Of a stretch of DNA of 36,031 nucleotides, positions 3,449 to 15,495 are shown piece after piece. The DNA comes from an uncultured Oscillospiraceae bacterium. Its GTDB lineage: Bacteria; Bacillota; Clostridia; Oscillospirales; CAG-382. The position numbers and the translations under genes are program-made. Position 1 is the first letter of the stretch. Each line of letters begins with the position of its first letter. Location: contig CAZJCI010000001.1 in assembly GCA_964544455.1 (NCBI GenBank), positions 1-36,031 on the forward strand, given 5' to 3'. The notes under the pieces are model-generated. The model worked only from the letters and a program-made list of their open reading frames with translations. It was not told the DNA's origin and ran no database searches.

Positions 3449-4537
3449 TTAATTAAAATAATAAGGCTTTCCGGTTTTTGCGGATTCATAAATTCCCTCA
3501 AGTATTTGTGTTACGCAATATGCCTGTTCCGGAAGAACAACCGGGTCGGTATCGTTAAGAATCGCATTAATCCATGCTCTTGCGTCTCTTTCCTGCGGAG
3601 AACCGTTGCCGTTGCCGTCGTAAAATGCAACGCCGCCCGCTTCAAGGTCGGGAGTTTTTGTATACTGCTTTCCGCATTCAACTCCGTTAATTCTGACTTT
3701 TCCGGTAAATGTATCGAGTCCTTCTTTGGTTCCGCAAAGCTGATAACGTGTTTCTCTCACTTCAAGAGTATTAAGTGCCCATGCGGATTCAAGCACTATT
3801 GTCGCGCCGTTTTCCATAACCACAAATCCAAATGCGGAATCTTCAACCGTAAATTCTTCGGGTTTCCAATCTCCCCAAGCGTTGGCGGTTCTTGTTTGAT
3901 TGTTAAGCTTGTGATATGTTGTTCCAACGCAATATTTAGGTTTATAATTGTTCATCATCCAAAGAGTAAGGTCAAGCGCATGAGTACCGATATCAATAAG
4001 CGGACCGCCGCCCTGTTCATATTCGTTAAGGAACACACCCCATGTGGGAACAGCTCTTCTTCTTATTGCATGAGCCTTTGCAAAATAAATATCGCCAAGA
4101 TTTCCGTTATCGCAATATTCCTTTGCAAACTGATTTTCGGCAGCCTGTCTGCCCTGATAGCCGATTGATAACTTTTTACCGCTTTCCTTTGCGGCATCAA
4201 GCATTTTTTTCGCTTCGGCGGAATTAATTGCCATGGGCTTTTCGCACATTACGTGTTTTCCCGCATGAAGAGCGTCAACGGTAATAAAACTGTGGCTTCT
4301 GTTAGGTGTGCAAACGTGAACAACGTCAATGCTTTCGTCCTTCAAAAGTTCCTTATAATCCGTATAAACCTTTGAGCCTTCCGCACCGAATTCTCTTGCC
4401 GCTTTTTGCGCTTTCCATTCAATAATATCGCAAAAAGCCACCATTTCGATTTCCGGAATTTTTTTCAAAGACGGCATATGCTTTCCGTTTGCAATACCGC
4501 CGCATCCAATGATGCCTATTCTCAATTTCTTTTCCAT
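3449..4537 (-). CDS. Gfo/Idh/MocA family NAD(P)-dependent oxidoreductase
   Basis: Track ORF 3449..4576. The internal ATG at 4537 (MEKKLRIGIIGCGGIANGKH) has AAAGGAA 9 nt upstream and puts the Rossmann GxGxxG at the N-terminus. It also has the family-typical MCEKPMA segment. Confidence 0.85.
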   Translation of the reverse strand: MEKKLRIGIIGCGGIANGKHMPSLKKIPEIEMVAFCDIIEWKAQKAAREFGAEGSKVYTDYKELLKDESIDVVHVCTPNRSHSFITVDALHAGKHVMCEKPMAINSAEAKKMLDAAKESGKKLSIGYQGRQAAENQFAKEYCDNGNLGDIYFAKAHAIRRRAVPTWGVFLNEYEQGGGPLIDIGTHALDLTLWMMNNYKPKYCVGTTYHKLNNQTRTANAWGDWKPEEFTVEDSAFGFVVMENGATIVLESAWALNTLEVRETRYQLCGTKEGLDTFTGKVRINGVECGKQYTKTPDLEAGGVAFYDGNGNGSPQERDARAWINAILNDTDPVVLPEQAYCVTQILEGIYESAKTGKPYYFN

Positions 4538-4593
4538 AACTGAAAATTCCTTTCTTTTTTTTGCCATATACGGCATTTTTAGCTTATATCGAA

Positions 4594-4615
4594 AAGAGTT
4601 GACAAATTAACTCTT
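4594..4615. promoter_or_regulatory. inverted repeat AAGAGTT-N8-AACTCTT, candidate operator in the leader of the sugar operon
   Basis: 7-bp perfect arms at 4594-4600 and 4609-4615. The repeat lies just downstream of the predicted minus-strand transcription start (about 4618) and upstream of the oxidoreductase RBS. No regulator gene is visible in the window. Confidence 0.3.
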
Positions 4616-4624
4616 CCGTTTTAT

Positions 4625-4653
4625 ATATTACCACATATAATTGAATTTTTCAA
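4625..4653 (-). promoter_or_regulatory. sigma-A type promoter for the minus-strand sugar operon
   Basis: On the minus strand: TTGAAA (4653-4648), a 17-nt spacer, then TGgTAATAT (-10 at 4630-4625, with the extended TG). Confidence 0.55.
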
Positions 4654-4730
4654 GTACTTATAAAAAATTAAACCATTTTTTTATATATATAAGCATTTTT
4701 TCAATACTCCTCTCATTCAAAAAAACGCAG

Positions 4731-5072
4731 TTATCTGTAATATTTATAAAACGCTGTAATTTCCCTTTCTCTTTCGGTGCAATAATCATATCCTTTCAAA
4801 ACCACTCCGTCCGCACTCATAAGCTCTCCCATTGTAAGCGAAAGAATTTCGGCTCTGAAAATTTCGGTAATTCCGCAAGTAACGGCAAGTTCTTCGCCGC
4901 CCGGAAGAATATTAATGTGCCCCTCTCTGCCGACAATTTCTTCTATCCCGTCAAAACGTTCAGTAACGTATCTGACATGGCGGTTGTTTATTTTTTCCGC
5001 AAAAGCCTTTTTAAAAGCCGATGAATTGTCGCTCTTAAAAAAAATATGTTTAATTTTGTCTTTCAGCTTCAT
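4731..5072 (-). CDS. hypothetical protein, 113 aa
   Basis: ATG start with AAAGGGGAAAG 3 nt upstream. It has its own good promoter (next feature). No family recognised, and no signal peptide or TM segment. Confidence 0.55.
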   Translation of the reverse strand: MKLKDKIKHIFFKSDNSSAFKKAFAEKINNRHVRYVTERFDGIEEIVGREGHINILPGGEELAVTCGITEIFRAEILSLTMGELMSADGVVLKGYDYCTEREREITAFYKYYR

Positions 5073-5166
5073 ATGCTTTCCCCTTTGTTTTCAGCACTGA
5101 TTCCATTATATGTAAAATATATCAAATTCCGAATATACGCCTATAAAAAAATCATTCCATATAATT

Positions 5167-5195
5167 ATTTTAACATCAACGCCCTTTTTCGTCAA
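5167..5195 (-). promoter_or_regulatory. sigma-A type promoter for the 113-aa gene
   Basis: On the minus strand: TTGACG (5195-5190), a 17-nt spacer, then TGtTAAAAT (-10 at 5172-5167). Confidence 0.5.
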
Positions 5196-5515
5196 CAGTT
5201 AATAAAAAAAGTTACAAACCGTCCGAACAAAAAAATTAACTATATCCCACATTTCCAATGCAAATAACGCAACCTTAAAGTGCTTTGTCTTTTACCGTCA
5301 CCCCATTACCGTCATATAACAAAACGACGCTCATCAAAATGAACGCCGCAGTTTAATAAATTTCCGATAATTCCACATATCAATAAGTCAAATTCTCGTT
5401 AAAAAAAGTAATCTAAATGCTTTCGTTTATTTTCATTCTTTATTTCATAATCTGATTGCAATTTTTCACAACCCATAATTTCCGTATTTTATTTCAGAAT
5501 ATTCGCCGTAATTTG

Positions 5516-6355
5516 TTATTTCATTTTACCCGTAACCTTTTTATTTTTAACGTTTTTTCTTCCGACTGTTTTTTCAATGTTATCAACCGAATTTTTTTGC
5601 ACGCCGTTTTTTAAAACAAGCGATTTCAATGCCTCCATTGCATTTGCAAGTCCGCCCACCTCGTCAATAAGTCCGATTTTCACTGCCGATTCTCCGTCTA
5701 TAACGCTTCCCACGTCCGTTGCAATTTCGTCGGTTTTCATCATCAAATCAAGCAATTCCTCTTTTTTTGCTTTCGAATGAAAAACAATAAAGTTCAATAT
5801 TCTTTCCTGCATTTTTGAAAAATAAGCAAAAGATTGCGGCACACCGATAACAAGTCCGTTCATTCGCACCGGGTGAAGCGTCATTGTGGCGGAAGGAACA
5901 ATAAAAGATTTATCCGCACAAACCGCAAGCGGAACGCCAATGGAATGTCCGCCGCCAAGTACAAGCGAAACGCTCGGTTTGGACATTCCCGCAACGGTTT
6001 CGGCAATGGCAAGTCCCGCTTCAACATCTCCGCCGACAGTATTAAGCAATAACAAAAGACCGTCTATATCGTCCCTATCCTCAATTCCCACCAATTGCGG
6101 CAAAACGTGTTCGTATTTTGTGGTTTTAACCTGCGGCGAAAGTGCCGAATGTCCCTCAATCTGACCTGCAATAATTATGGTATGAATCGAAATACCGCCG
6201 TTTTTTGTCGTAATGCTTCCGCTGTCCTCAATATTCGAAAATTGAACGGAATTTTTCTCGGCAATTTCCTTTTCTTCGTCCGAATATTTTTCTTTATCCT
6301 GTTCCGAGTCGTAAGCAAGCTTATCGGCAACGCTTTTGTTTTTTTCAATATTCAT
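5516..6355 (-). CDS. tepA: TepA-like ClpP-fold protein (translocation-enhancing protein TepA / YmfB family)
   Basis: Long colinear blocks match B. subtilis TepA as I recall it: IIAGQIEGH, KTTKYEHVLPQLV, LNTVGGDVEAGLAIAE, SKPSVSLVLGGGHSIGVPLAV, MTLHPVR, GVPQSF, KMQERI. Confidence 0.85.
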   Translation of the reverse strand: MNIEKNKSVADKLAYDSEQDKEKYSDEEKEIAEKNSVQFSNIEDSGSITTKNGGISIHTIIIAGQIEGHSALSPQVKTTKYEHVLPQLVGIEDRDDIDGLLLLLNTVGGDVEAGLAIAETVAGMSKPSVSLVLGGGHSIGVPLAVCADKSFIVPSATMTLHPVRMNGLVIGVPQSFAYFSKMQERILNFIVFHSKAKKEELLDLMMKTDEIATDVGSVIDGESAVKIGLIDEVGGLANAMEALKSLVLKNGVQKNSVDNIEKTVGRKNVKNKKVTGKMK

Positions 6356-6382
6356 TTATACCGCAACCGCCTTAAAAAATAA

Positions 6383-6433
6383 AATATAACTCCGCATTTT
6401 GGCATATTATTGCCCAAAATGCGGAGTTATATT
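6383..6433 (-). terminator. very stable hairpin with a U-tract (intrinsic-terminator-like), 27 nt upstream of the tepA start codon
   Basis: Arms 6383-6402 and 6414-6433 are perfect 20-nt reverse complements (AATATAACTCCGCATTTTGG / CCAAAATGCGGAGTTATATT) with an 11-nt loop. On the minus strand the hairpin is followed by TTATTTTTTAAGG. On the plus strand it is followed by CAATTTTTAT. Confidence 0.6.
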
Positions 6434-6855
6434 CAATTTTTATCATTTTACCGCATCGTCGCACAAAACAGCTTTTGCATAATAATTCGCCGTACAAAAA
6501 ACGTGCTTTACTATATAATAATATACTTATATATCCGCATACTTACACACATGGCAGTATGCATAAATACAGCACAGCATAACACAGCCCGCAAATTTGC
6601 AAGAAAATTCTTTTTGCGCATATTATACCGTTCTTATAAACTCGAAAATATTCCGTCAGCCAACAGCCTAACCGCAAACGGCCGAATTCGCTTTGACGCG
6701 CCGCAAACTGTTTTTGAACCGTATTTTTGCAACTGTTTTAATTTTGAATATCCGCACTCAAGCACGCCGACAAACTTCAACCGTTGTGTTTAAAAATTTA
6801 CCGCCGAAAAATTCCGTTTCGCCAAACAGTTTTCACAAAATTTTCGGTTATCGAG

Positions 6856-6884
6856 TTGCAAAACGCAAAATACTGTGCTATAAT
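6856..6884 (+). promoter_or_regulatory. sigma-A type promoter for the giant ORF and mreB
   Basis: TTGCAA (6856-6861), a 17-nt spacer, then TGcTATAAT (-10 at 6879-6884). This is about 50 nt upstream of the ATG at 6934, which has AAAGGAA 7 nt upstream. Confidence 0.6.
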
Positions 6885-6933
6885 ATTGTCCGATATAATT
6901 TTTTATATATAATATAACCGAAAGGAACTGAAT

Positions 6934-9900
6934 ATGGACTGTAATGTCGCTTCCGAAAACGAATTTTCAATATCGGCGGAAATGCCTCAAACATATACGG
7001 CAACGCATTTTTTCTGCGGTATTCCGTTAATAAAATCCGTAATGCTGACGTCTGAAAAAACAATTTGCAATATTAACGGAAATTTATCCGTAAATATAAC
7101 CGCAAAATGCGAAAACTCGGATATCCTTAATTTCGCTTTTAATCTCGCCGATTTTCGCGCTTGCGATTATACGTGCGTCGGAGCAACCGCAATAAAGTTG
7201 AATCTCGAAAAATTTAAAATTGTTCCCAACGCCGATTTTATCAATTCGCTTGAAAACAACGCATACGCAAAAATTTTCATAACCGTTTGCATAGGCAAAA
7301 CGCACGCGGCAAAATCCGCAGATATAAAAATTTCTCCGTTCGGGCATATTTGCCCCGAAATGCCCCCGGAACTCGTTTGTTCATACGTTCTTCCGGATTG
7401 CGAATTTGCCGCAACCGCCGAACTCGAACTTCCGTCATATGCCGAAAAAGCGGAAAAAAAGCATTCTCAAAAACCGCCCAAGCAAATTCTTCACGCGGAA
7501 GCGTTGGCGGATTTTATGCTTTCCGCAAAGCTTACATATTCTTCGGTTCACAATGAATTGCCCGACGGCGAATGTATCATTCGCGATACGGACAGCCTTA
7601 TGGCTTCAAACAAAAAAAGCGTCAGTCAAACGGAAGCCGCGCTGATTTATTGCTCGCTTGCGGAACGTTGCGGTCTTCGTCCGGGAATAGTTTTTCTCCG
7701 CCGAGGAGCGGGAGCGATAAAAGTTCTCATAAAAATCGGTCTCGGCAATTACTACGCCGGAAACGCGGTCGGCGAAAGCGTTTCGCAATTACGAAAAAAA
7801 ATTCTGAATAAAGAAATATTTGTTTTTGATATTTTGGAACTTCTCGGTACGGAAGAAAGCGATTTTCAAAAAAACGTAACCGAAACCACCGCTCTTGTTT
7901 TTAAAGTCAGTTCGGCAGTCGCATATTCCGTAAACGTATATACCGCAAGACTTTGCGGCGTAAGGTCGTTGCGCCCGTTCGACGGTTGCGGCGCAAAAGA
8001 TATATACGGCGGATACGAAAGCGTTTCCGACGTTGTAAAAAAAATAGATAAAAACGCCGACTTGGTTTCGGTTTACAATTTTTCTCCGTATAAAACGCCG
8101 TCCTTGGGGCTTTGCGCCGCTTCAACTCTTGAATACGGAAAAGAATATACCGTTTCCGCTTTGGACGACGAATTCATATGCTCGTCGCCGGACGCATTTT
8201 CGGAAATATGCGAAATTCAACCGCAAAGAATATACGATATTCACCGAAACATAACCGAAAAAACACTCTATGATGCAAAAGCAGAAAAGCTGAAAAACAA
8301 AATTTCCGAAAGCGTAAAAAAAGGGACGGTTTACGCATACCCGTCAAAATATATGCTCTGTGCCGAAAAGCTTTTCCCCGAAAAAATTCGCGACGAACTT
8401 AATTCCGACGCAACCCTGCTTTGCCAAACGGCAAAAATAGCTTCTCTTAATTGCGAAAATACTTCCGTCTATGCAATTTGCGGAACAGTTAAGCTGACCG
8501 AAAACGGAAGCGAATGTTTTGTTCCGTGCGCATATATTCCTTGTAAAATTTCGGTGGAAACCGGCGCAATAAAAATCACATACGGAGTCGGGGGTGCAAT
8601 GCCGAACCCAAGTTTAATCAAACGTATTGCCCAACACACCGAATTCGGTTTAAATATCGGCGCAAATTCCGAACTTTGCCAAAATGAACTGAAAGATTAC
8701 ATATCAAAAATAAAAAAAATTTCACAAGAAAGCAACGGCAAATTTGTTTTTTATTCCGATACGTTTTTGGCGGCGTTCGATATTTCCTATGCGCTTATGA
8801 GAAACTGCCTTGAACGCACGGAAGGAAAAAAATTCGAAAGCTGTCTTGAAAACGGAAAATATACGCTTTCTCCACACGAAAACGCAAAAAACGAAAATTT
8901 CGATTCAACCTTGCCTTTCGAATGTTCTTCAACCGTGCGAGAAGCGGTAAAACAAGCCGAAACCGATAGCGTTGTTATTTCCGGCGCTCACGGAACCGGC
9001 AAAAAAAAGGCGGTCGCCAACATAATATCTCGCGCCGCTCTTGCGGGAAACGGCGTTCTTGTTTGTTCAAAATACCCCGAATCCCTAAAATCTCTCCGCA
9101 ATACCTTGTGCACAAAAGGTCTCGACGAATTGTGCCTCTATATATCGGAAGAAGCCGAAACCAAAAACAGAATTTTAAATGATATTCGAACCCTTACTTC
9201 AAAAGCGCAAAATCCGCCCAAAATCGCAAATAACGGTTTTTCCGCAACCGAATCCGCTCTTAATTTCCGCACAAATCAAGTTTATTCCGAATGCGGATTC
9301 GGATTGTCCCTATACGATTGCATTGAAGAATATTGCAAATACGACGTCGTATGCGAAGTTCCCCCAATAAACATCGAAACGGAAATTTGCAACCTTTCGG
9401 AAGAAAGCGTCAAAAATATTATTGATATTTCCGAAAATCTTGCCGCCAAAGCGGCGGAAATTTCCGAAATGTGCGAAAAAAGCCGAACCGATATATTTCA
9501 ATATCTGAAATATATAAAAAGCGTAAAAGAAATACCCAAATCATCGTTTTCCCTTTTTCAAGAAACAGCCGAACAAATCAGAATTTTTTCCGAAAAGTCC
9601 GCTTTCACCAAAAATTGCCTGGAACTCTCCGATAAAGATATGCCCTCCGTGCGTTCTCTGCTTGCTTTGGGCGAATTTTCGGAACTTATCGTAAAATCCG
9701 GAATAGATTTTCTTCCGAATCAAATTTTTGCCGAAAGCGTATACAGATGCGCAAAAAACGTCCATAGCGCGTGCGACTTAATCGACGAACTTCACGAAAT
9801 TAACTGCCGCCTCAGTTTTATAAGCAACAGAATAGCGTCCGTATCATGCACGGAACTTTACATAAAATGGAAAGATTCCGAAAACAATCTTTTTGTCCGA

Positions 9901-11931
9901 AACAGCATTATCCACGAAATAACAAAATATTTGCCCGCCGATAAAAAAATATCTTCAAAAGAAACAGGCGAAATTTTGGAAAATCTGTCTCGCCGAGAAC
10001 AGCTTGAAAAAGAGCTTTCTTCGGCGTCGTCGGAATTGAACTCTGTCCTCGGCGAACTTTGGAACGGAAAAAATACCGATACCGAAAAAGCAAGACGCAT
10101 AGCCTCATTTGCCGTTTCGGCAGACGCTTGCATAAAAAAGCTTTTCCCGACTCAAACCGCAATTTCCGAAAATACAATAAACGGAATAAAAAAATTGATA
10201 AGCGAACTTTCCAAAAATAACTCGCAAAAAACGGATTTTGTGTTGGCGGTTTCGGCTTTCAAAAAGCTTGCGGACCCCGGCAACGGGCTTTTTTCCCAAC
10301 TCCAGGAATGTTTGTGTGCCGATTTGTACGAACTCAAATTTCCCAACGGAATTATGAGTAAAAACGGAATGTGCACAATGTTGCACACATTTTGCGAAAA
10401 CATTCAAACGCTCTCAAAAATTCACGAACTTAACATTCTGAAAAAAGACGCCCAAGCCGTAGGACTTTCAAATTTTGTCCGTTATATCGAAACCCGAAAA
10501 ACTACCGGCAACGAATCGGCTCTTTTCAAAAAAAGTATCTACTGTGCGTTTGCAAATTATATCATTTCCTCAAAACAACTCACCGGTGAAGAAGATATTA
10601 CCCAACAATACAAAAAATACCGAGATGCCTATATCAACCAAAAAAACATTACGGCATACAATTTGATTGTTGCTCACCGAAAAAAATTCAAAGAATACGT
10701 TGCAACCGAAAACGGAAAAAAAGAGCTTTTCGAATTGCAAAAAAACCTTAACAACAGCGCACTGTCCTGCTGTGAAATCATAAATAACAGTTATAAAATT
10801 CTTCAAGTAATCTATTGTGCGGTATTGGTTCCTCTGACAATCGCATACGGTTTGCGTACATACCCCGAAATACTTGTGCTTACCGATTGCGAAAAAACCG
10901 ACGCTTCCGAGGGAATCCCGCTGTGCGCAAGCTTCGATAAATGCGTGTTTATAACTTCGCCGTTCGAAAAAATAGGAAGCATAATATCGTCTCTCCCTTT
11001 GGATATACCCATATTCGAACTTAATAGCGTTGCGGAAGAAAAAAACGGAAACATCTCGGCTTTTACCAACAGCCTTTTCGGAAACTCAATCGCAACGCTG
11101 TGCCGTGAAAGCGGCGAGGATACGGTGAAATTTATAAAATGCGACGGCGGCGTTTACGATAAAAACAACGGCACAAACAAAATTGAAGCGGTCAAAGCTT
11201 GTGAAACAGCCCTTTCCGTCGCTCAAACCGAAGGTTTTCAAAACGTGGGAATAATGGCGTTTACCGCCGCTCAAGCTTTCGAAATAACCTCCGCTTTGCA
11301 AATTCTTTCCAAAAAACACCGTAACCAAACCATTGCCGAAATTCCTGTTCGTTATATCGGCAATATGGGCGACTTTTCAAAAGAGGTCATTGTTTTATCG
11401 GTAACATTCGGTAAAAATATATTCTCTTTTCCCAAAAGTTTCGGTTGCGCCGACAATATAAGTATGATTCGTCACGGTCATCCGGTTGTTTTGGCGGAAT
11501 TGTTGTGCTGTTGCGGAAAATTATATGTAGTTTCCTCGTGCGAACCGGAAGAAATTTCCACCGACGGGTTGTGCCTTGGCGCAAGCGCAATACGAAGCGT
11601 TTTGGAACTTGCAAAATACGGTTGCTTGCCCATATACCTTTCAAACGAATCGCACAGCCGCACGCTTGGCGGAATCGAGAATAAAATTTGCCGAAATGCC
11701 TGCATTTCTCATAATGCGCAAAATGTAATCATAAGTAACGGAACAGCCGTATACGGCAATACCGCAATAGTTTATGATAACGGATATATCCGAGATGCCT
11801 ACGAAAGAATAATACTTCCTCTCACGGAATTCGAAGCGAAAGGCTATAACGTAAAATTTCAAAATATATGCGATTTGCTAAAAAATACAAAACCGACGGA
11901 ACCCTCGTTTCCGTCCGAGAAAAGAGAGTGA
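6934..11931 (+). CDS. 1665-aa DUF4011 / SF1 (Upf1-DNA2-like, AAA_11+AAA_12) helicase-related protein with a DUF559-like C-terminus; catalytic motifs degenerate
   Basis: An uninterrupted 4998-nt ORF with a good RBS. Landmarks read by eye:
- DUF4011-like core, aa 511-575 (VYAICGTVKL...FVPCAYIPCKIS...NPSLIKRIAQ).
- P-loop-like GAHGTGKKK, aa 684-692 (nt 8983-9009).
- Long helical insert, aa 740-1290.
- Motif II position reads LVLTDCEKT, aa 1314-1322 (nt 10873-10899).
- C-terminal block IVYDNGYIRDAYERIILPLTEFEAKGYNV resembles the ExDG...DxxR...GW core of DUF559/Vsr-like nucleases. Confidence 0.8.
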   Translation: MDCNVASENEFSISAEMPQTYTATHFFCGIPLIKSVMLTSEKTICNINGNLSVNITAKCENSDILNFAFNLADFRACDYTCVGATAIKLNLEKFKIVPNADFINSLENNAYAKIFITVCIGKTHAAKSADIKISPFGHICPEMPPELVCSYVLPDCEFAATAELELPSYAEKAEKKHSQKPPKQILHAEALADFMLSAKLTYSSVHNELPDGECIIRDTDSLMASNKKSVSQTEAALIYCSLAERCGLRPGIVFLRRGAGAIKVLIKIGLGNYYAGNAVGESVSQLRKKILNKEIFVFDILELLGTEESDFQKNVTETTALVFKVSSAVAYSVNVYTARLCGVRSLRPFDGCGAKDIYGGYESVSDVVKKIDKNADLVSVYNFSPYKTPSLGLCAASTLEYGKEYTVSALDDEFICSSPDAFSEICEIQPQRIYDIHRNITEKTLYDAKAEKLKNKISESVKKGTVYAYPSKYMLCAEKLFPEKIRDELNSDATLLCQTAKIASLNCENTSVYAICGTVKLTENGSECFVPCAYIPCKISVETGAIKITYGVGGAMPNPSLIKRIAQHTEFGLNIGANSELCQNELKDYISKIKKISQESNGKFVFYSDTFLAAFDISYALMRNCLERTEGKKFESCLENGKYTLSPHENAKNENFDSTLPFECSSTVREAVKQAETDSVVISGAHGTGKKKAVANIISRAALAGNGVLVCSKYPESLKSLRNTLCTKGLDELCLYISEEAETKNRILNDIRTLTSKAQNPPKIANNGFSATESALNFRTNQVYSECGFGLSLYDCIEEYCKYDVVCEVPPINIETEICNLSEESVKNIIDISENLAAKAAEISEMCEKSRTDIFQYLKYIKSVKEIPKSSFSLFQETAEQIRIFSEKSAFTKNCLELSDKDMPSVRSLLALGEFSELIVKSGIDFLPNQIFAESVYRCAKNVHSACDLIDELHEINCRLSFISNRIASVSCTELYIKWKDSENNLFVRNSIIHEITKYLPADKKISSKETGEILENLSRREQLEKELSSASSELNSVLGELWNGKNTDTEKARRIASFAVSADACIKKLFPTQTAISENTINGIKKLISELSKNNSQKTDFVLAVSAFKKLADPGNGLFSQLQECLCADLYELKFPNGIMSKNGMCTMLHTFCENIQTLSKIHELNILKKDAQAVGLSNFVRYIETRKTTGNESALFKKSIYCAFANYIISSKQLTGEEDITQQYKKYRDAYINQKNITAYNLIVAHRKKFKEYVATENGKKELFELQKNLNNSALSCCEIINNSYKILQVIYCAVLVPLTIAYGLRTYPEILVLTDCEKTDASEGIPLCASFDKCVFITSPFEKIGSIISSLPLDIPIFELNSVAEEKNGNISAFTNSLFGNSIATLCRESGEDTVKFIKCDGGVYDKNNGTNKIEAVKACETALSVAQTEGFQNVGIMAFTAAQAFEITSALQILSKKHRNQTIAEIPVRYIGNMGDFSKEVIVLSVTFGKNIFSFPKSFGCADNISMIRHGHPVVLAELLCCCGKLYVVSSCEPEEISTDGLCLGASAIRSVLELAKYGCLPIYLSNESHSRTLGGIENKICRNACISHNAQNVIISNGTAVYGNTAIVYDNGYIRDAYERIILPLTEFEAKGYNVKFQNICDLLKNTKPTEPSFPSEKRE

Positions 11932-11935
11932 CTAA

Positions 11936-12958
11936 TTGAACAGTTCAAGATATGTCGGAATAGATTTGGGCACAGCCAATACACTTGTCTATACAAAAGA
12001 AAAGGGAATAAGCGTAAGAGAACCGTCTATGGTTGCGTATGAACGGTCAACGTCAAAAGTAATAGCCGTCGGAAGCGAAGCGAAAAAAATGCTCGGCAAA
12101 ACGCCGGACTCCATAAAAACTCTCAGTCCCGTAAAAGACGGAGTAATTGCTGATTTTGAATTTTGCGCCGATATGCTTTGCGAATTTATAAAAAAGGGAT
12201 TCGGTCCGATTTTGGGCTTTCGTCCCAAAGTAATGGTTTGCATTCCTTTCGGCATAACGGAGGTTGAAAAACGGGCGGTGCTGGATTCCATACTCGAAGC
12301 GGGCGCAAGCAGCGTCGAAATTTTCGAAGAACCTCTTTGCGCGGCTCTGGGCGCAGGACTTCCCGTAATGTCGGAAAAAGGCAGTATGATTGTGGATATA
12401 GGAGCGGGAACCGCCGAAATAGCAATTCTTTCGCACGGAGGAATAGTAACTTCCACGTCCGTAAAAATTGCGGGTAACGCATTTGATAAATCCATAATTT
12501 CATATATAAAACAGGAATTTAACGTCCTGATAGGTCAGGTAACCGCCGAAGAAATAAAAACCAAAATCGGTTCCGCACACCCAAGTTCGGACATCGGCGC
12601 AATCGAAGTAAAAGGCAGAAATATGCGCAACGGAAAAGCCGCCGAATTCATATTATATTCCGCCGAAGTACGAGAAGCAATTCAAGAACCGCTTGCCGCG
12701 CTTTTCGAAGCAATACGCTCCGTGCTGGATTCCGCGCCGCCGGAAATTTGCGCCGATATTTACGACAACGGCATAACGCTCAGCGGCGGCGGCGCACTGT
12801 TAAAAGGACTTAACTTTTATTTCCACGATATTTCAAAATTAAACGTAAGAGTTGCCGAAAATCCGCTTGACTGCGTAATTTGCGGCATACGCAAGCTTAT
12901 TCAAGAACCGGCGTTGCGCAATAAAATCGAAAGTATAGCTCTTCATTCCGCAACATAA
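11936..12958 (+). CDS. mreB: rod-shape-determining actin homologue MreB/Mbl
   Basis: A TTG start 4 nt after the giant ORF's TGA, with AAGAGAG 7 nt upstream. Canonical MreB blocks are present: GIDLGTANTLVY, REPSMVA, KDGVIADFE, EEPLCAALGAGLPV, GSMIVDIGAGTAEIA, GRNMRNG, LSGGGALLKGL, VAENPLDCV. There is no mreC or mreD downstream. Confidence 0.9.
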   Translation: MNSSRYVGIDLGTANTLVYTKEKGISVREPSMVAYERSTSKVIAVGSEAKKMLGKTPDSIKTLSPVKDGVIADFEFCADMLCEFIKKGFGPILGFRPKVMVCIPFGITEVEKRAVLDSILEAGASSVEIFEEPLCAALGAGLPVMSEKGSMIVDIGAGTAEIAILSHGGIVTSTSVKIAGNAFDKSIISYIKQEFNVLIGQVTAEEIKTKIGSAHPSSDIGAIEVKGRNMRNGKAAEFILYSAEVREAIQEPLAALFEAIRSVLDSAPPEICADIYDNGITLSGGGALLKGLNFYFHDISKLNVRVAENPLDCVICGIRKLIQEPALRNKIESIALHSAT

Positions 12959-12970
12959 AAATTAAATATA

Positions 12971-13010
12971 TTTAAAAAATGTCTTGATATTTTAAAAAAA
13001 TGTCTTGACT
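12971..13010 (+). repeat. tandem 20-bp direct repeat TTTAAAAAA(A)TGTCTTGA(TAT/CT)
   Basis: Copy 1 is 12971-12990 and copy 2 is 12991-13010. They are near-identical apart from one extra A. Copy 2 supplies the -35 of the tsaB promoter. Confidence 0.5.
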
Positions 13011-13034
13011 TTTCAAACCGCAAAACTGTATAAT
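13005..13034 (+). promoter_or_regulatory. sigma-A type promoter for tsaB-hpt
   Basis: TTGACT (13005-13010), an 18-nt spacer ending in TG, then TATAAT (13029-13034). Confidence 0.6.
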
Positions 13035-13064
13035 ATATCTAACATAACAAAGATTGGTGATAAA

Positions 13065-13829
13065 ATGTATATACTTGCCATTGATACAACAGCAAAAACG
13101 GCGTCCGTATGCGTTGCAAAAGTTTGCGAAGAAGAAATAACCCCCTGTTCTTTGTGGACAGTAAATTGCGGATTCACTCACAGCGAAACGCTCTTGCCGA
13201 TGATCGACGCTTGCCTTGGCGCAACGGGAATTTCAACCGATAATTTGGAAATTATCGCCGTAAGTGCCGGTCCCGGTTCTTTCACCGGAGTAAGAATAGG
13301 CGTTGCCGCCGCAAAGGGAATTTCTTTCGGACTCGCCGCAAAGGGAATAACTCATAAATGCGTCGAAGTTTCTTCAATCGAAGCTTTGGCGGAAAACGTA
13401 AAAAATTATTCCGAATATGTCATATGCCCCGTAATGGACGCAAGACGTTCTCAGTTTTACAACGGACTTTTCAGCGCAAAAAGCGGAAAAATACAAAGAC
13501 TGTGCAACGACAGACTTTCCACCGCCGCCGAACTTTATAACGATATAAACGAAAAATTCGTCAACAAAAAAATTCTTCTTGTGGGCGACGGTGCGGTTTT
13601 GTGCAAAAAACTTTTCGATAAAATCGCCGTCGAATCGCAAAATAACCCAAACTTTGAATATACCGTTTGCGACAGTTCGGATATGTACCAAAACGCATAT
13701 TCGGTTGCCAAAACCGCAATTTTTTCGCCAAACGCCAAAAACACGGACGGCGCACGGCTTTCGCCGATATACCTAAGAGCTTCGCAAGCCGAAAGAGAAC
13801 GCTTGGCTCGCCAAAAAGAAAAAGAATAA
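13065..13829 (+). CDS. tsaB: tRNA t6A37 threonylcarbamoyl-adenosine biosynthesis protein TsaB (YeaZ)
   Basis: Track ORF 13005..13829. The upstream part overlaps the promoter, so I prefer the ATG at 13065 (MYILAIDTT). TsaB-typical segments are ILAIDTT, HSETLLPMID and AVSAGPGSFTGVRIGV. Confidence 0.85.
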   Translation: MYILAIDTTAKTASVCVAKVCEEEITPCSLWTVNCGFTHSETLLPMIDACLGATGISTDNLEIIAVSAGPGSFTGVRIGVAAAKGISFGLAAKGITHKCVEVSSIEALAENVKNYSEYVICPVMDARRSQFYNGLFSAKSGKIQRLCNDRLSTAAELYNDINEKFVNKKILLVGDGAVLCKKLFDKIAVESQNNPNFEYTVCDSSDMYQNAYSVAKTAIFSPNAKNTDGARLSPIYLRASQAERERLARQKEKE

Positions 13830-14423: not shown

Positions 14424-14502
14424 TATTTTTAAAAATATATAATAAAAACAGCCGTTGCCCGCTTCAAATTTGCGCCAAAGCAACGGCAAGAAGGAGAATT
14501 AT

Positions 14503-15495
14503 ATGAGTATACAGGAAAACATCAAACGCTTTCAAAGCAAAAAATGGGGTGTGTTTTACCACTTTTTGGGCGGACACGACGGCAAAGCGTGGAGCGAAAG
14601 AGTAGATAAAGTCAACGTTGAACTTTGGGCAAAACAGCTCTGCGAGTTGGGGTGCGGATTTATGGGCATAACCATGATGCAGGTAACGCAGTGTATGCTT
14701 GCTCCAAACGAAGCATACAACAGAATAACGGGCTACGCTCCCGGCGAAGCATGCGCAAAGCGAGATTTAGTACTCGAACTTTCCGACGCGCTTGCAAAAT
14801 ACGATATAGACCTAATGCTGTACTATACCGGCGACGGTCCGTGTCGAGACAGAAGCCATAAAGCCAGCAACGCTTTCGGCTTTACCACCAATCAACCCGT
14901 TTGCGTCAACGGAAAATGGACGCCGCTTGTAAAGGAACCGGAATATATCCCTCAAAGTTTTGTGGATAAATGGTGCGAAGTCCTCCAAGAATATGCCCAA
15001 AGATACGGCAACAGGGTTTTCGCTTGGTGGATTGACGGTTGCTCCAAAACGCTTTACGAAGATTCCACAAGACTTCAATATCTTGAAAAGTTCAAAAACG
15101 CCGCAAGAAGCGGAAATCCCGATGTTCTTATGACATTCAACGCAGGTTTTTGCAACACCGGTCACCGCCCGCCCTGCCGCCTCGATGATTTCACCAGCGG
15201 AGAAACAAGCGAATTTTTACCCATTCCGCAAAGTCCCTACGTCGAAAACGCCCTGTGGTTCGAATTTTTGTGCAACGGATTTTGGTGGAAAAACGGCGAC
15301 AGAAGCACCGGAATTTGGGTTGGAAACAAAGAAGAACAAAATCAAATAAGATATACCCCCGAAGAACTGCGAGACCACGTAAAAGCCGTAAACGAAGCCG
15401 GCGGCGTGGTAATGTTCGATACGCAATTCGTAAACGACGGAAAAATCAACGAATTGCAATTCGAATGTATGTCAAAACTTTGCGAACTGAAATGA
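14503..15495 (+). CDS. GH29-like (alpha-L-fucosidase-like) TIM-barrel hydrolase, catalytic domain only, cytoplasmic
   Basis: The ATG at 14503 is preceded by AAGGAGA. WGVFYHF, KRDLVLELSDALAKYDIDLMLYY and the AWWIDG block resemble the GH29 core, including the Asp nucleophile position. No signal peptide. Assigned by eye only. Confidence 0.55.
   Translation: MSIQENIKRFQSKKWGVFYHFLGGHDGKAWSERVDKVNVELWAKQLCELGCGFMGITMMQVTQCMLAPNEAYNRITGYAPGEACAKRDLVLELSDALAKYDIDLMLYYTGDGPCRDRSHKASNAFGFTTNQPVCVNGKWTPLVKEPEYIPQSFVDKWCEVLQEYAQRYGNRVFAWWIDGCSKTLYEDSTRLQYLEKFKNAARSGNPDVLMTFNAGFCNTGHRPPCRLDDFTSGETSEFLPIPQSPYVENALWFEFLCNGFWWKNGDRSTGIWVGNKEEQNQIRYTPEELRDHVKAVNEAGGVVMFDTQFVNDGKINELQFECMSKLCELK

Follow-up and report, generated by a model that had tools for sequence, protein, structure and literature searches.

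The 36,031-nucleotide (nt) contig CAZJCI010000001.1 of an uncultured Oscillospiraceae bacterium (assembly GCA_964544455.1), hereafter the window, i.e., the whole stretch of DNA that was analyzed, carries next to each other a gene for a 1665-residue protein, which we refer to as the giant, and a gene for the actin-like cytoskeletal protein MreB. Our analysis identifies the giant as a catalytically dead, truncated descendant of the Prometheus/ProA group of DUF4011 helicase-nucleases, and homologs of it lie directly upstream of mreB in all 18 examined loci of one MreB clade. We consider it fairly probable that the two genes form a co-inherited operon in which the dead enzyme serves as a non-catalytic partner of a dedicated MreB. 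The more specific proposal, namely, that a ProA-type helicase-nuclease was exapted, all its active sites having been lost, as the structural partner of a specialized MreB in a so far undescribed actin-based module, is offered more tentatively, as a plausible scenario rather than as our expectation.

The window spans the entire 36-kb contig and represents core chromosome, with rimP-nusA-infB-rbfA, recA, a murA-type gene, tsaB, hpt and mscL. The giant open reading frame (ORF) begins with an ATG and ends with the TGA at 11929-11931, and is followed, after 4 bases (CTAA), by mreB, which encodes 340 amino acids from a TTG start to the TAA at 12956-12958. This TTG is the sole start codon that preserves the essential GIDLGT phosphate-1 motif, because an in-frame TAA lies at 11933-11935 and no other start codon occurs between it and the motif. 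A TTG located 7 codons ahead of GIDLGT is also the start in most orthologs of the window's sub-clade. The gene call for the linked mreB in the protein collection (P0023, 330 amino acids) begins at an internal TTG at 11966 and loses the GID of phosphate-1. Conservation of this rare start may reflect low or coupled translation of mreB. In another genome, RGIG7291, the giant and MreB carry consecutive accessions (MBR5308341 and MBR5308342).

An earlier note on this DNA, prepared from the sequence alone, had placed the mreB start 4 nt past the TGA of the giant and had described a canonical MreB devoid of the usual mreC, mreD and min neighbors. All of this stands: the re-read ORF coordinates are the same, no mreC, mreD or min genes were found in the 36-kb window, and the protein passes the cut-offs of three MreB profiles, i.e., PF06723 (418.5 bits; cut-off, 27), TIGR00904 (398.7; 365.75) and PRK13927 (421.5; 293). 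The ATP-binding motifs GIDLGTANT, DGVIADF, EEPLCAALGAG, DIGAGTAE and SGGGALLKGL are all present and conserved across the clade, and at the position that we take to be the membrane-binding loop of Gram-positive and Thermotoga MreBs, the linked protein has a hydrophobic PILGF. The linked MreB is probably a working, polymerizing MreB. It scores below the cut-off of the MreBH profile NF010540 (361.1 versus 515 bits) and of the MamK profile (75 versus 400 bits), has no PADLOC match, and differs from other MreBs by a signature of only three positions, F238, Y241 and C272.

The evidence of a bond between the two genes comes primarily from comparison of loci, which were collected mainly by an MreB search (a single-peptide-pattern search with the giant alignment had low recall and yielded 5 loci); all of the genomes are metagenome-assembled genomes (MAGs) of related, uncultured gut and rumen Clostridia. 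The 18 linked loci are the window, L001-L009, L087-L089, L094, L096 and L099-L101. No mreC or mreD was found in any of them. A search of about 150 other MreB loci with the giant profile (hmmsearch) detected no giant homolog, and four sister-group loci (L010, L102, L103 and L180) have the classical mreB-mreC arrangement, followed by a PBP2-type gene in L010 and preceded by maf in L180. The protein collection contains 17 full-length relatives of the giant with 36-90% identity, and a single cluster of linked MreBs is represented in 67 blocks of the assembly collection. Within the sub-clade to which the window belongs (L001-L008, L087 and L094), mreB is followed by tsaB-hpt-(GDPD)-mscL wherever the contig is long enough, which could be due to simple common descent. 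The next-closest MreBs, 52-58% identical, have a large gene without Pfam matches directly 5' in quite different neighborhoods. In L009, this upstream gene encodes 1667 amino acids with 32% identity to the giant. Elsewhere, the orders are spoIIGA-sigE-giant-mreB-iPGM (L088 and L096-098), WecG-giant-mreB with DUF378 on the opposite strand (L089), radical SAM-OKR_DC-giant-mreB-tsaB-hpt-mscL with a 4-nt overlap (L099), DHH phosphoesterase-giant-mreB (L100), and a PfkB-like kinase followed by giant-mreB-iPGM-GLUG (L101). The homology of the upstream genes of the deeper lineages to the giant is supported by BLASTP (E-values of 4e-22 and 1e-9) and hmmsearch (1e-111 to 1e-195).

Thus, the pair persists in at least 6 upstream contexts (the 113-residue gene, spoIIGA-sigE, DHH phosphoesterase, PfkB-like kinase, WecG, and radical-SAM/OKR_DC) and at least 4 downstream contexts (tsaB-hpt-mscL, polysaccharide deacetylase, iPGM, and DUF378). 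Even local insertions leave it intact: in L003, a deacetylase gene has been inserted between mreB and tsaB, and in the window, a ClpP-like gene separates the giant gene from its usual divergent neighbor, the 113-residue gene. The G+C content is uniform over the region, which led us to reject a recent horizontal transfer of the pair. No relatives were found in viral contigs in a pattern-limited scan, and plasmids produced one distant ProA-type match only. Given the even G+C content, the housekeeping flanks and the searches of viruses and plasmids, the pair does not look mobile.

Phylogenetic analysis of both proteins points to the same history. In an IQ-TREE phylogeny of 93 MreBs, the 18 linked copies fall on one side of a branch with a Shimodaira-Hasegawa-like approximate likelihood ratio test support of 94, and one state change accounts for the linkage; FastTree analysis of 142 MreB rows recovers a 64-row clade with a support of 97. 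An exhaustive profile search for relatives of the giant found 8,866 proteins. The first 37 or so representatives are collinear and 1510-1750 amino acids long; ProA-type proteins of 1900-2000 amino acids come next. The giants form a 46-row clade (support 100) on a long stem, with verified mreB-linked members in every sub-clade and with ProA-type proteins as the outgroup. The sister of this clade is P0154 (L095, 6001-11013), a 1670-residue protein with no adjoining mreB. Its Walker A (GSGKT) looks intact and an MTES_1575 nuclease domain can be detected, but DEAxQ has been lost; P0154 may represent a decay intermediate. The giant and MreB distance matrices are strongly correlated (r = 0.91; in a Mantel test, 0 of 5000 permutations reached this value). 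The giants have diverged to 16% identity. On the strength of the MreB and giant trees, the linkage has a single origin, roughly contemporaneous with that of the giant clade, and its loss is never seen. The survey of gene neighborhoods that the earlier note had called for thus reveals an adjacency that is not confined to this genome and holds despite rearranged flanks, and the absence of conserved synteny, on which that note would have abandoned its proposal, is decisively contradicted by these results together with the single origin on both trees.

No Pfam domain reaches the threshold in the giant, and its ancestry emerges from other comparisons. The NCBIfam profile of ProA (NF058533) matches at E = 1.4e-47 with 161.9 bits, below the cut-off of 1500, aligning giant residues 487-1304 with profile positions 454-1294, a stretch that takes in the helical insertion discussed below. 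The PADLOC profile PDC-S37 matches at E = 3e-32 (109 bits), and Hhe weakly, around motif I (NCBIfam NF042953, E = 1.5e-6, 26 bits against a cut-off of 2000; PADLOC, E = 6e-8). In the reverse direction, the giant-family profile retrieves DUF4011/AAA_11/AAA_12/MTES_1575 proteins with E-values down to 4e-65; for ProA-type proteins, a value of 1e-65 was obtained. The giant aligns collinearly with ProA-type proteins from the N-terminus, and the possibility that its first 480 residues are a domain newly added in the giant family was accordingly rejected, since ProA-type proteins align there from their own N-terminus.

The N-terminal 690 residues are modeled with a predicted local distance difference test (pLDDT) score of 80 as beta-sandwich and alpha/beta domains; with the N-terminal domain, Foldseek retrieves 3kd4 weakly (E = 1e-3; template modeling score 0.15-0.19) and also factor XIII and protein 4.2, with probability 1.0 across some 145 columns that belong mostly to the beta-sandwich, so that any similarity to transglutaminase-like proteins is weak. 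This domain contains the most conserved motif of the giant family (E234, S241, A243, E244, G247 and L248), and Y513, G517, P531, N558 and L561 are invariant in the DUF4011-like region. The C-terminal two-thirds (pLDDT 85) are predicted to comprise two RecA-like domains in an Upf1-like arrangement, with an insertion of about 525 residues (model residues 131-654) that is nearly all helix with pLDDT mostly above 85, and a small C-terminal alpha/beta unit. The best structural matches of the helicase part are senataxin, Aquarius, IGHMBP2, Upf1 and Dna2 (E-values of 1.6e-6 to 1e-4, probability 1.0, about 350 columns), and a PDB profile search with the giant finds Nam7/Upf1 at E = 1.5e-6. As a separate observation, the giant contains 68 cysteines (4.1%), compared to 0.4-2.1% in five other proteins of the window and 1.9-3.6% in its orthologs.

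All catalytic centers that would be expected in such a protein have been lost. The Walker A motif, GPPGTGKS in ProA-type proteins, is GAHGTGKK in the giant, with Lys replacing the Mg-binding Ser/Thr, and is eroded further in orthologs (GGCGRNE in L009, AVKEKTD in L088, NASDKED in L096 and SFDKQSE in L099). Walker B, FDEASQ in ProA-type proteins, has become TDCEKT and variants thereof, and the arginine finger of motif VI, retained in ProA-type proteins, is gone from the family. The IECDGxxYH core of the ProA-type nuclease has been deleted, leaving a gap of about 31 residues over ECDG, although the nuclease remnant of the giant keeps 'RDxYDR...GY'. At the N-terminal Cys/His site, ProA-type proteins have GTCxD...HAF (G-T/N-C-x-D), whereas the giant has 'QTEAAL' and lacks the His; family-wide, the site reads T-E or P-L/M-E, with no catalytic Cys or His. 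Finally, the DUF3320 tail of ProA-type proteins is absent from the giant, which ends about 15 residues past the nuclease remnant. The gene is nonetheless under purifying selection: the ratio of nonsynonymous to synonymous substitution rates (dN/dS) in the closest pair, L004/L007, is 0.11 for the giant versus 0.04 for mreB, and in deeper pairs, where synonymous sites are near saturation, that of the giant is 0.07-0.2. Because the catalytic motifs are lost, the fold is retained and dN/dS is low, the giant is, by the evidence of its sequence, a selected, non-enzymatic protein. The description of the giant in the earlier note as a helicase-derived pseudo-helicase is therefore borne out, by the predicted SF1B Upf1-like fold on the one hand and by the erosion of every catalytic motif in the alignment on the other; its account of the origin was right about the descent from a helicase but missed the anti-phage ProA/Prometheus ancestry.

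Expression signals are compatible with an operon. The earlier note had proposed co-transcription from a promoter at 6856-6884, a Shine-Dalgarno-like AAGAGAG that precedes mreB and overlaps the giant ORF, no promoter or terminator between the genes, and a next promoter, for tsaB, only past mreB. AAGAGAG is present, as a weak Shine-Dalgarno sequence, and a consensus scan recovers both promoter sites (Table 1), finds no terminator-like sites on the forward strand over 6300-13200, and detects one weak promoter-like site inside the giant ORF. The identity of tsaB is supported by a TIGR03725 match, and because no terminator-like hairpin lies between mreB and the tsaB promoter site, read-through into tsaB is possible. 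Promoter-like sites in the scanned region occur at the level expected by chance (13 observed versus 13.9 expected), and therefore the consensus scan by itself proves nothing. The 6856-6884 promoter gains weight, however, because similar sites, TTGCAA(A)-N17-(TG)nTATAAT-like, recur 5' of the giant gene, at a distance of 70-155 nt, in 9 of 15 orthologous loci, with the deepest branches represented (L088, L089 and L096 are among the 9), and looser ones (TTGCAT, TTGAAA) in 2 further loci, L005 and L099. The string CCGAAAGGAA is kept ahead of the giant start codon in the window's sub-clade, and orthologs carry GGAGAAATGA at the position of AAGAGAG, with the stop codon of the giant embedded in it. 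The gap between the giant stop and the mreB start varies from -4 to 142 nt among the linked loci; translational coupling of mreB to the giant ORF, which had also been thought likely, was rejected as a conserved feature on this ground. An Rfam search over 4500-13200 produced no match. Among public sequencing runs, none of RNA was found to contain the stretch, and the DNA runs that were listed contain only 5-9% of the sampled words. Taken together, these observations suggest that the giant and mreB are co-transcribed.

The scenario that we favor can be outlined as follows. The ancestor would have been a Prometheus/ProA-type anti-phage protein in which a transglutaminase-like N-terminus and a DUF4011 region preceded an SF1B helicase, interrupted by a long helical insertion, and a nuclease of the Vsr-like type. 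All three catalytic centers and the DUF3320 tail would have been lost on the stem of one clade and, at or near that time, the giant would have become fixed beside a duplicated or relocated mreB, the two genes diverging together ever since in uncultured gut and rumen Clostridia. The resulting two-gene operon, presumably driven by the conserved sigma-70-type promoter upstream of the giant gene, would be inherited as one unit, and the giant would act by binding rather than by catalysis, as a scaffold, adaptor or regulator for the filaments of a dedicated MreB. The adjacency, its persistence through rearrangements, its single origin, the lost motifs, the preserved folds and the purifying selection rest on the comparisons above; co-transcription, physical contact between the giant and MreB, and the cellular process served by the pair are what we infer. 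By analogy with ParR-ParM, one possibility is a module in which MreB filaments are tethered to nucleic acid or the nucleoid, or else to an envelope or sporulation machine. In this connection, spoIIGA-sigE lies directly 5' of the pair in one large sub-clade, represented by L088 (1220-2875) and L096 (1179-2867), where the pair keeps its own sigma-70-type promoter, and in L089, SpoIIE is found at a distance of 2 kb from the pair; given that this applies to some lineages only and that the promoter is sigma-70-like, a sporulation link is a possible lead and nothing more.

Several considerations weigh against such a partnership. Any two genes that are inherited vertically should diverge in a correlated manner, and such a correlation is no proof of contact. 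The genomes compared are without exception MAGs from related Clostridia, so that the conservation of the pair is in part phylogenetic inertia, even though the giants have diverged so far, and the contexts of 29 of the 46 giant-family representatives lie outside the count. With just three signature positions, no obviously remodeled binding surface is visible in the linked MreB. Finally, mreB might have a separate promoter in the 3' end of the giant ORF, for which the weak site noted above is a candidate.

One alternative is co-expression without partnership, whereby a shared promoter keeps the gene order while the two proteins serve unrelated processes. In most loci, the space 5' of mreB is too short to accommodate a separate promoter, so that the two genes could be kept in this order simply by selection for expression, and the sparse signature of the linked MreB clade fits with this explanation. 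However, the pair has outlasted all the changes of upstream and downstream neighbors as well as the divergence of the giant to 16% identity, and the origin of the linkage coincides with that of both clades. Furthermore, the gaps of 50-142 nt in several lineages would permit the acquisition of a new promoter and separation of the genes, and yet none of the 18 loci shows such separation. We regard co-expression alone as unlikely. A different question is whether the linked mreB is the genome's only housekeeping copy, moved away from mreCD, with the giant modulating ordinary rod-shape elongation. This concerns the role of MreB, is compatible with an operon of partners, and is orthogonal to the other alternatives. 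The canonical motifs are all kept, the subfamily cut-offs are passed, no second mreB was seen in the examined sequences of these MAGs, and the sigma-70-type promoter suggests vegetative expression; yet the linked clade stands apart from the MreBs that are linked to mreC in other Clostridia, and MAGs labeled Oscillospiraceae are found on either side of this division (L007 and L100 versus P0125), which hints that the two types of MreB may coexist as paralogs. On this evidence, a sole copy appears somewhat doubtful.

Given that the nearest relatives of the giant (ProA, PDC-S37 and Hhe) are anti-phage proteins, the pair could conceivably still be a defense module, in which a motor-dead ProA-like sensor of a phage cue is coupled to an MreB-like effector or guarded decoy. 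Some Bacillus phages organize their replication via MreB and some phage proteins inhibit MreB, so that versions of this idea in which the pair causes growth arrest, or mimics the MreB that phages exploit or inhibit, come to mind. All this is difficult to reconcile with the loss of every catalytic center from the giant and with the vertical inheritance, housekeeping flanks and stable positions within lineages, in place of a patchy distribution or an island context. Nor do the lack of copies in the pattern-limited scan of viral contigs, the single distant ProA-type match among plasmids and the blank PADLOC result for MreB favor it. According to a review that cites the original work on Prometheus, a single-protein defense system, ProA has four domains, none of which is dispensable for activity (PMC13700489). 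We consider a defense function of the pair, in these or other forms, improbable.

The remaining features of the neighborhood bear on individual lineages. The 113-residue gene, which has no Pfam match, is 72% identical to a 114-residue divergent gene located just 5' of the giant in L001-L003, L005 and L006; in the window, it is displaced by 1.9 kb by the ClpP-like insertion, and it is missing in L088, L089, L096 and L099. The inserted gene encodes a ClpP/SppA-like serine protease (PF00574, E = 1.5e-21) and is separated from the giant gene by 578 nt of non-coding sequence without an Rfam match; both the gene and the gap are absent at the corresponding position in orthologous loci. Just upstream of the start of the ClpP-like gene lies a 28-nt inverted repeat whose arms are 93% complementary and enclose an 11-nt loop; it could be an operator or a leader hairpin. 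An ORF within this non-coding stretch (6410-6793, forward strand) was rejected as a gene, having neither a Pfam match nor an ortholog. Between hpt and mscL, the window contains a 346-residue ORF with a weak alpha-L-fucosidase-like match (E = 1.7e-6), where orthologous loci have a gene for a 243-residue GDPD phosphodiesterase instead.

Table 1. Features of the giant-mreB locus and its surroundings, with positions in the window
Feature	Position	Strand	Basis or remark
113-residue gene	4731-5072	-	
ClpP/SppA-like serine protease gene	5516-6355	-	PF00574
Non-coding stretch	6356-6933		
Inverted repeat	6375-6441		
Putative sigma-70-type promoter with extended -10 (TTGCAA-17-TGcTATAAT)	6856-6884	+	Scan, 10/12 matches, TG present
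Shine-Dalgarno sequence GAAAGGAA of the giant gene	6920-6927	+	6 nt ahead of ATG 6934; read from sequence
Giant gene, 1665 amino acids: catalytically dead, truncated descendant of Prometheus/ProA DUF4011 helicase-nucleases	6934-11931	+	Profiles, alignment
N-terminal beta-sandwich plus alpha/beta domain (about residues 1-350), weakly transglutaminase-like	6934-7983	+	Model m59a1e2a78c1c, Foldseek
DUF4011-like region (about residues 465-640)	8326-8853	+	Aligns with the DUF4011 part of ProA-type proteins
Walker A remnant GAHGTGKK (residues 684-691)	8983-9006	+	Alignment with active relatives
All-helical insertion of about 525 residues between the RecA1 halves (about residues 770-1295)	9241-10818	+	Model m1c082e2546dc
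Rest of RecA1 plus RecA2, SF1B fold, without motif VI Arg (about residues 1296-1560)	10819-11613	+	Foldseek, PDB profile
Walker B/motif II remnant LTDCEKT (residues 1316-1322) replacing FDEASQ	10879-10899	+	Alignment
Vsr/MTES_1575-type nuclease remnant (about residues 1580-1650)	11671-11883	+	Small alpha/beta unit in model; alignment
Weak promoter-like site inside the giant ORF	11688-11715	+	Consensus scan, 9/12 matches
Weak Shine-Dalgarno-like AAGAGAG for mreB	11922-11928	+	Within the last codons of the giant ORF
mreB, 340 amino acids	11936-12958	+	TTG start
Promoter-like site of tsaB (TTGACT-18-TATAAT)	13005-13034	+	11/12 matches; downstream edge of the pair
346-residue ORF	14455-15495	+	Weak alpha-L-fucosidase-like match

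The known partners of MreB are MreC, MreD, RodZ and a few regulators, all of them small membrane or adaptor proteins. To our knowledge, no immune helicase relic of 1,600 residues is among them. The view that a partnership between MreB and a helicase-derived giant is undescribed is in line with our literature search, which, in the library searched, found nothing that mentions MreB together with DUF4011 and no paper on such a pair. If the proposed exaptation is correct, the pair would provide a rare documented instance in which an immune enzyme became part of the cytoskeleton. If the pair is strictly conserved, it would define an MreB subfamily that is new and has an accessory protein of its own, represent a defense gene domesticated into core cell biology, and provide a testable role for large 'hypothetical' proteins, in about 46 clusters, that are frequent in gut and rumen metagenomes. 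Moreover, the giant family offers a clean natural example of a protein that stays under selection after losing three separate catalytic centers.

Among known systems, Prometheus/ProA (NF058533; PDC-S37) is the closest to the giant, with which it shares the collinear N-terminus, DUF4011, the SF1B helicase including the long helical insertion, and the Vsr/MTES_1575 nuclease, a remnant in the giant. However, the giant is about 250-300 residues shorter than the roughly 1900-2000 residues of ProA, scores 162 bits against a cut-off of 1500, departs from the four-domain architecture (DUF4011, SF1 helicase, MTES_1575-type nuclease and DUF3320), and is devoid of Walker A and B, the motif VI Arg, the nuclease core and the N-terminal Cys/His. 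In addition, ProA acts alone, whereas the giant is vertically inherited among core genes and always has mreB directly downstream. Hhe (NF042953), which combines a DUF4011 helicase with a Vsr-like nuclease, belongs to the same broad superfamily but is far more distant from the giant than ProA, and its catalytic sites, too, are lost in the giant.

On the cytoskeletal side, the scores and motifs of the linked copy are those of a true MreB, as in the classical system with MreC, MreD and RodZ, but it belongs to a separate clade and its neighbor is a dead helicase rather than mreCD. That Firmicutes have stand-alone MreB paralogs at sites distant from mreCD is well established (PMC8136486). Of these, Mbl is linked to spoIIID, unlike the MreB described here, which adjoins the dead helicase and falls below the MreBH cut-off. 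A possible functional analogy is provided by ParM-ParR-parC and MamK-MamJ, in which the gene of an actin-fold ATPase likewise lies beside that of a non-catalytic binding partner. In the present case, the actin is MreB proper, the gene order is reversed, the locus is chromosomal, and in place of the centromere-like repeat array of ParMRC, the region upstream of the giant gene (6300-6960) has only short two-copy matches. Extending the analogy, the dead helicase might still hold nucleic acid. Actin-like filament proteins with dedicated partners are familiar, whereas a partner of the type suggested here is unprecedented.

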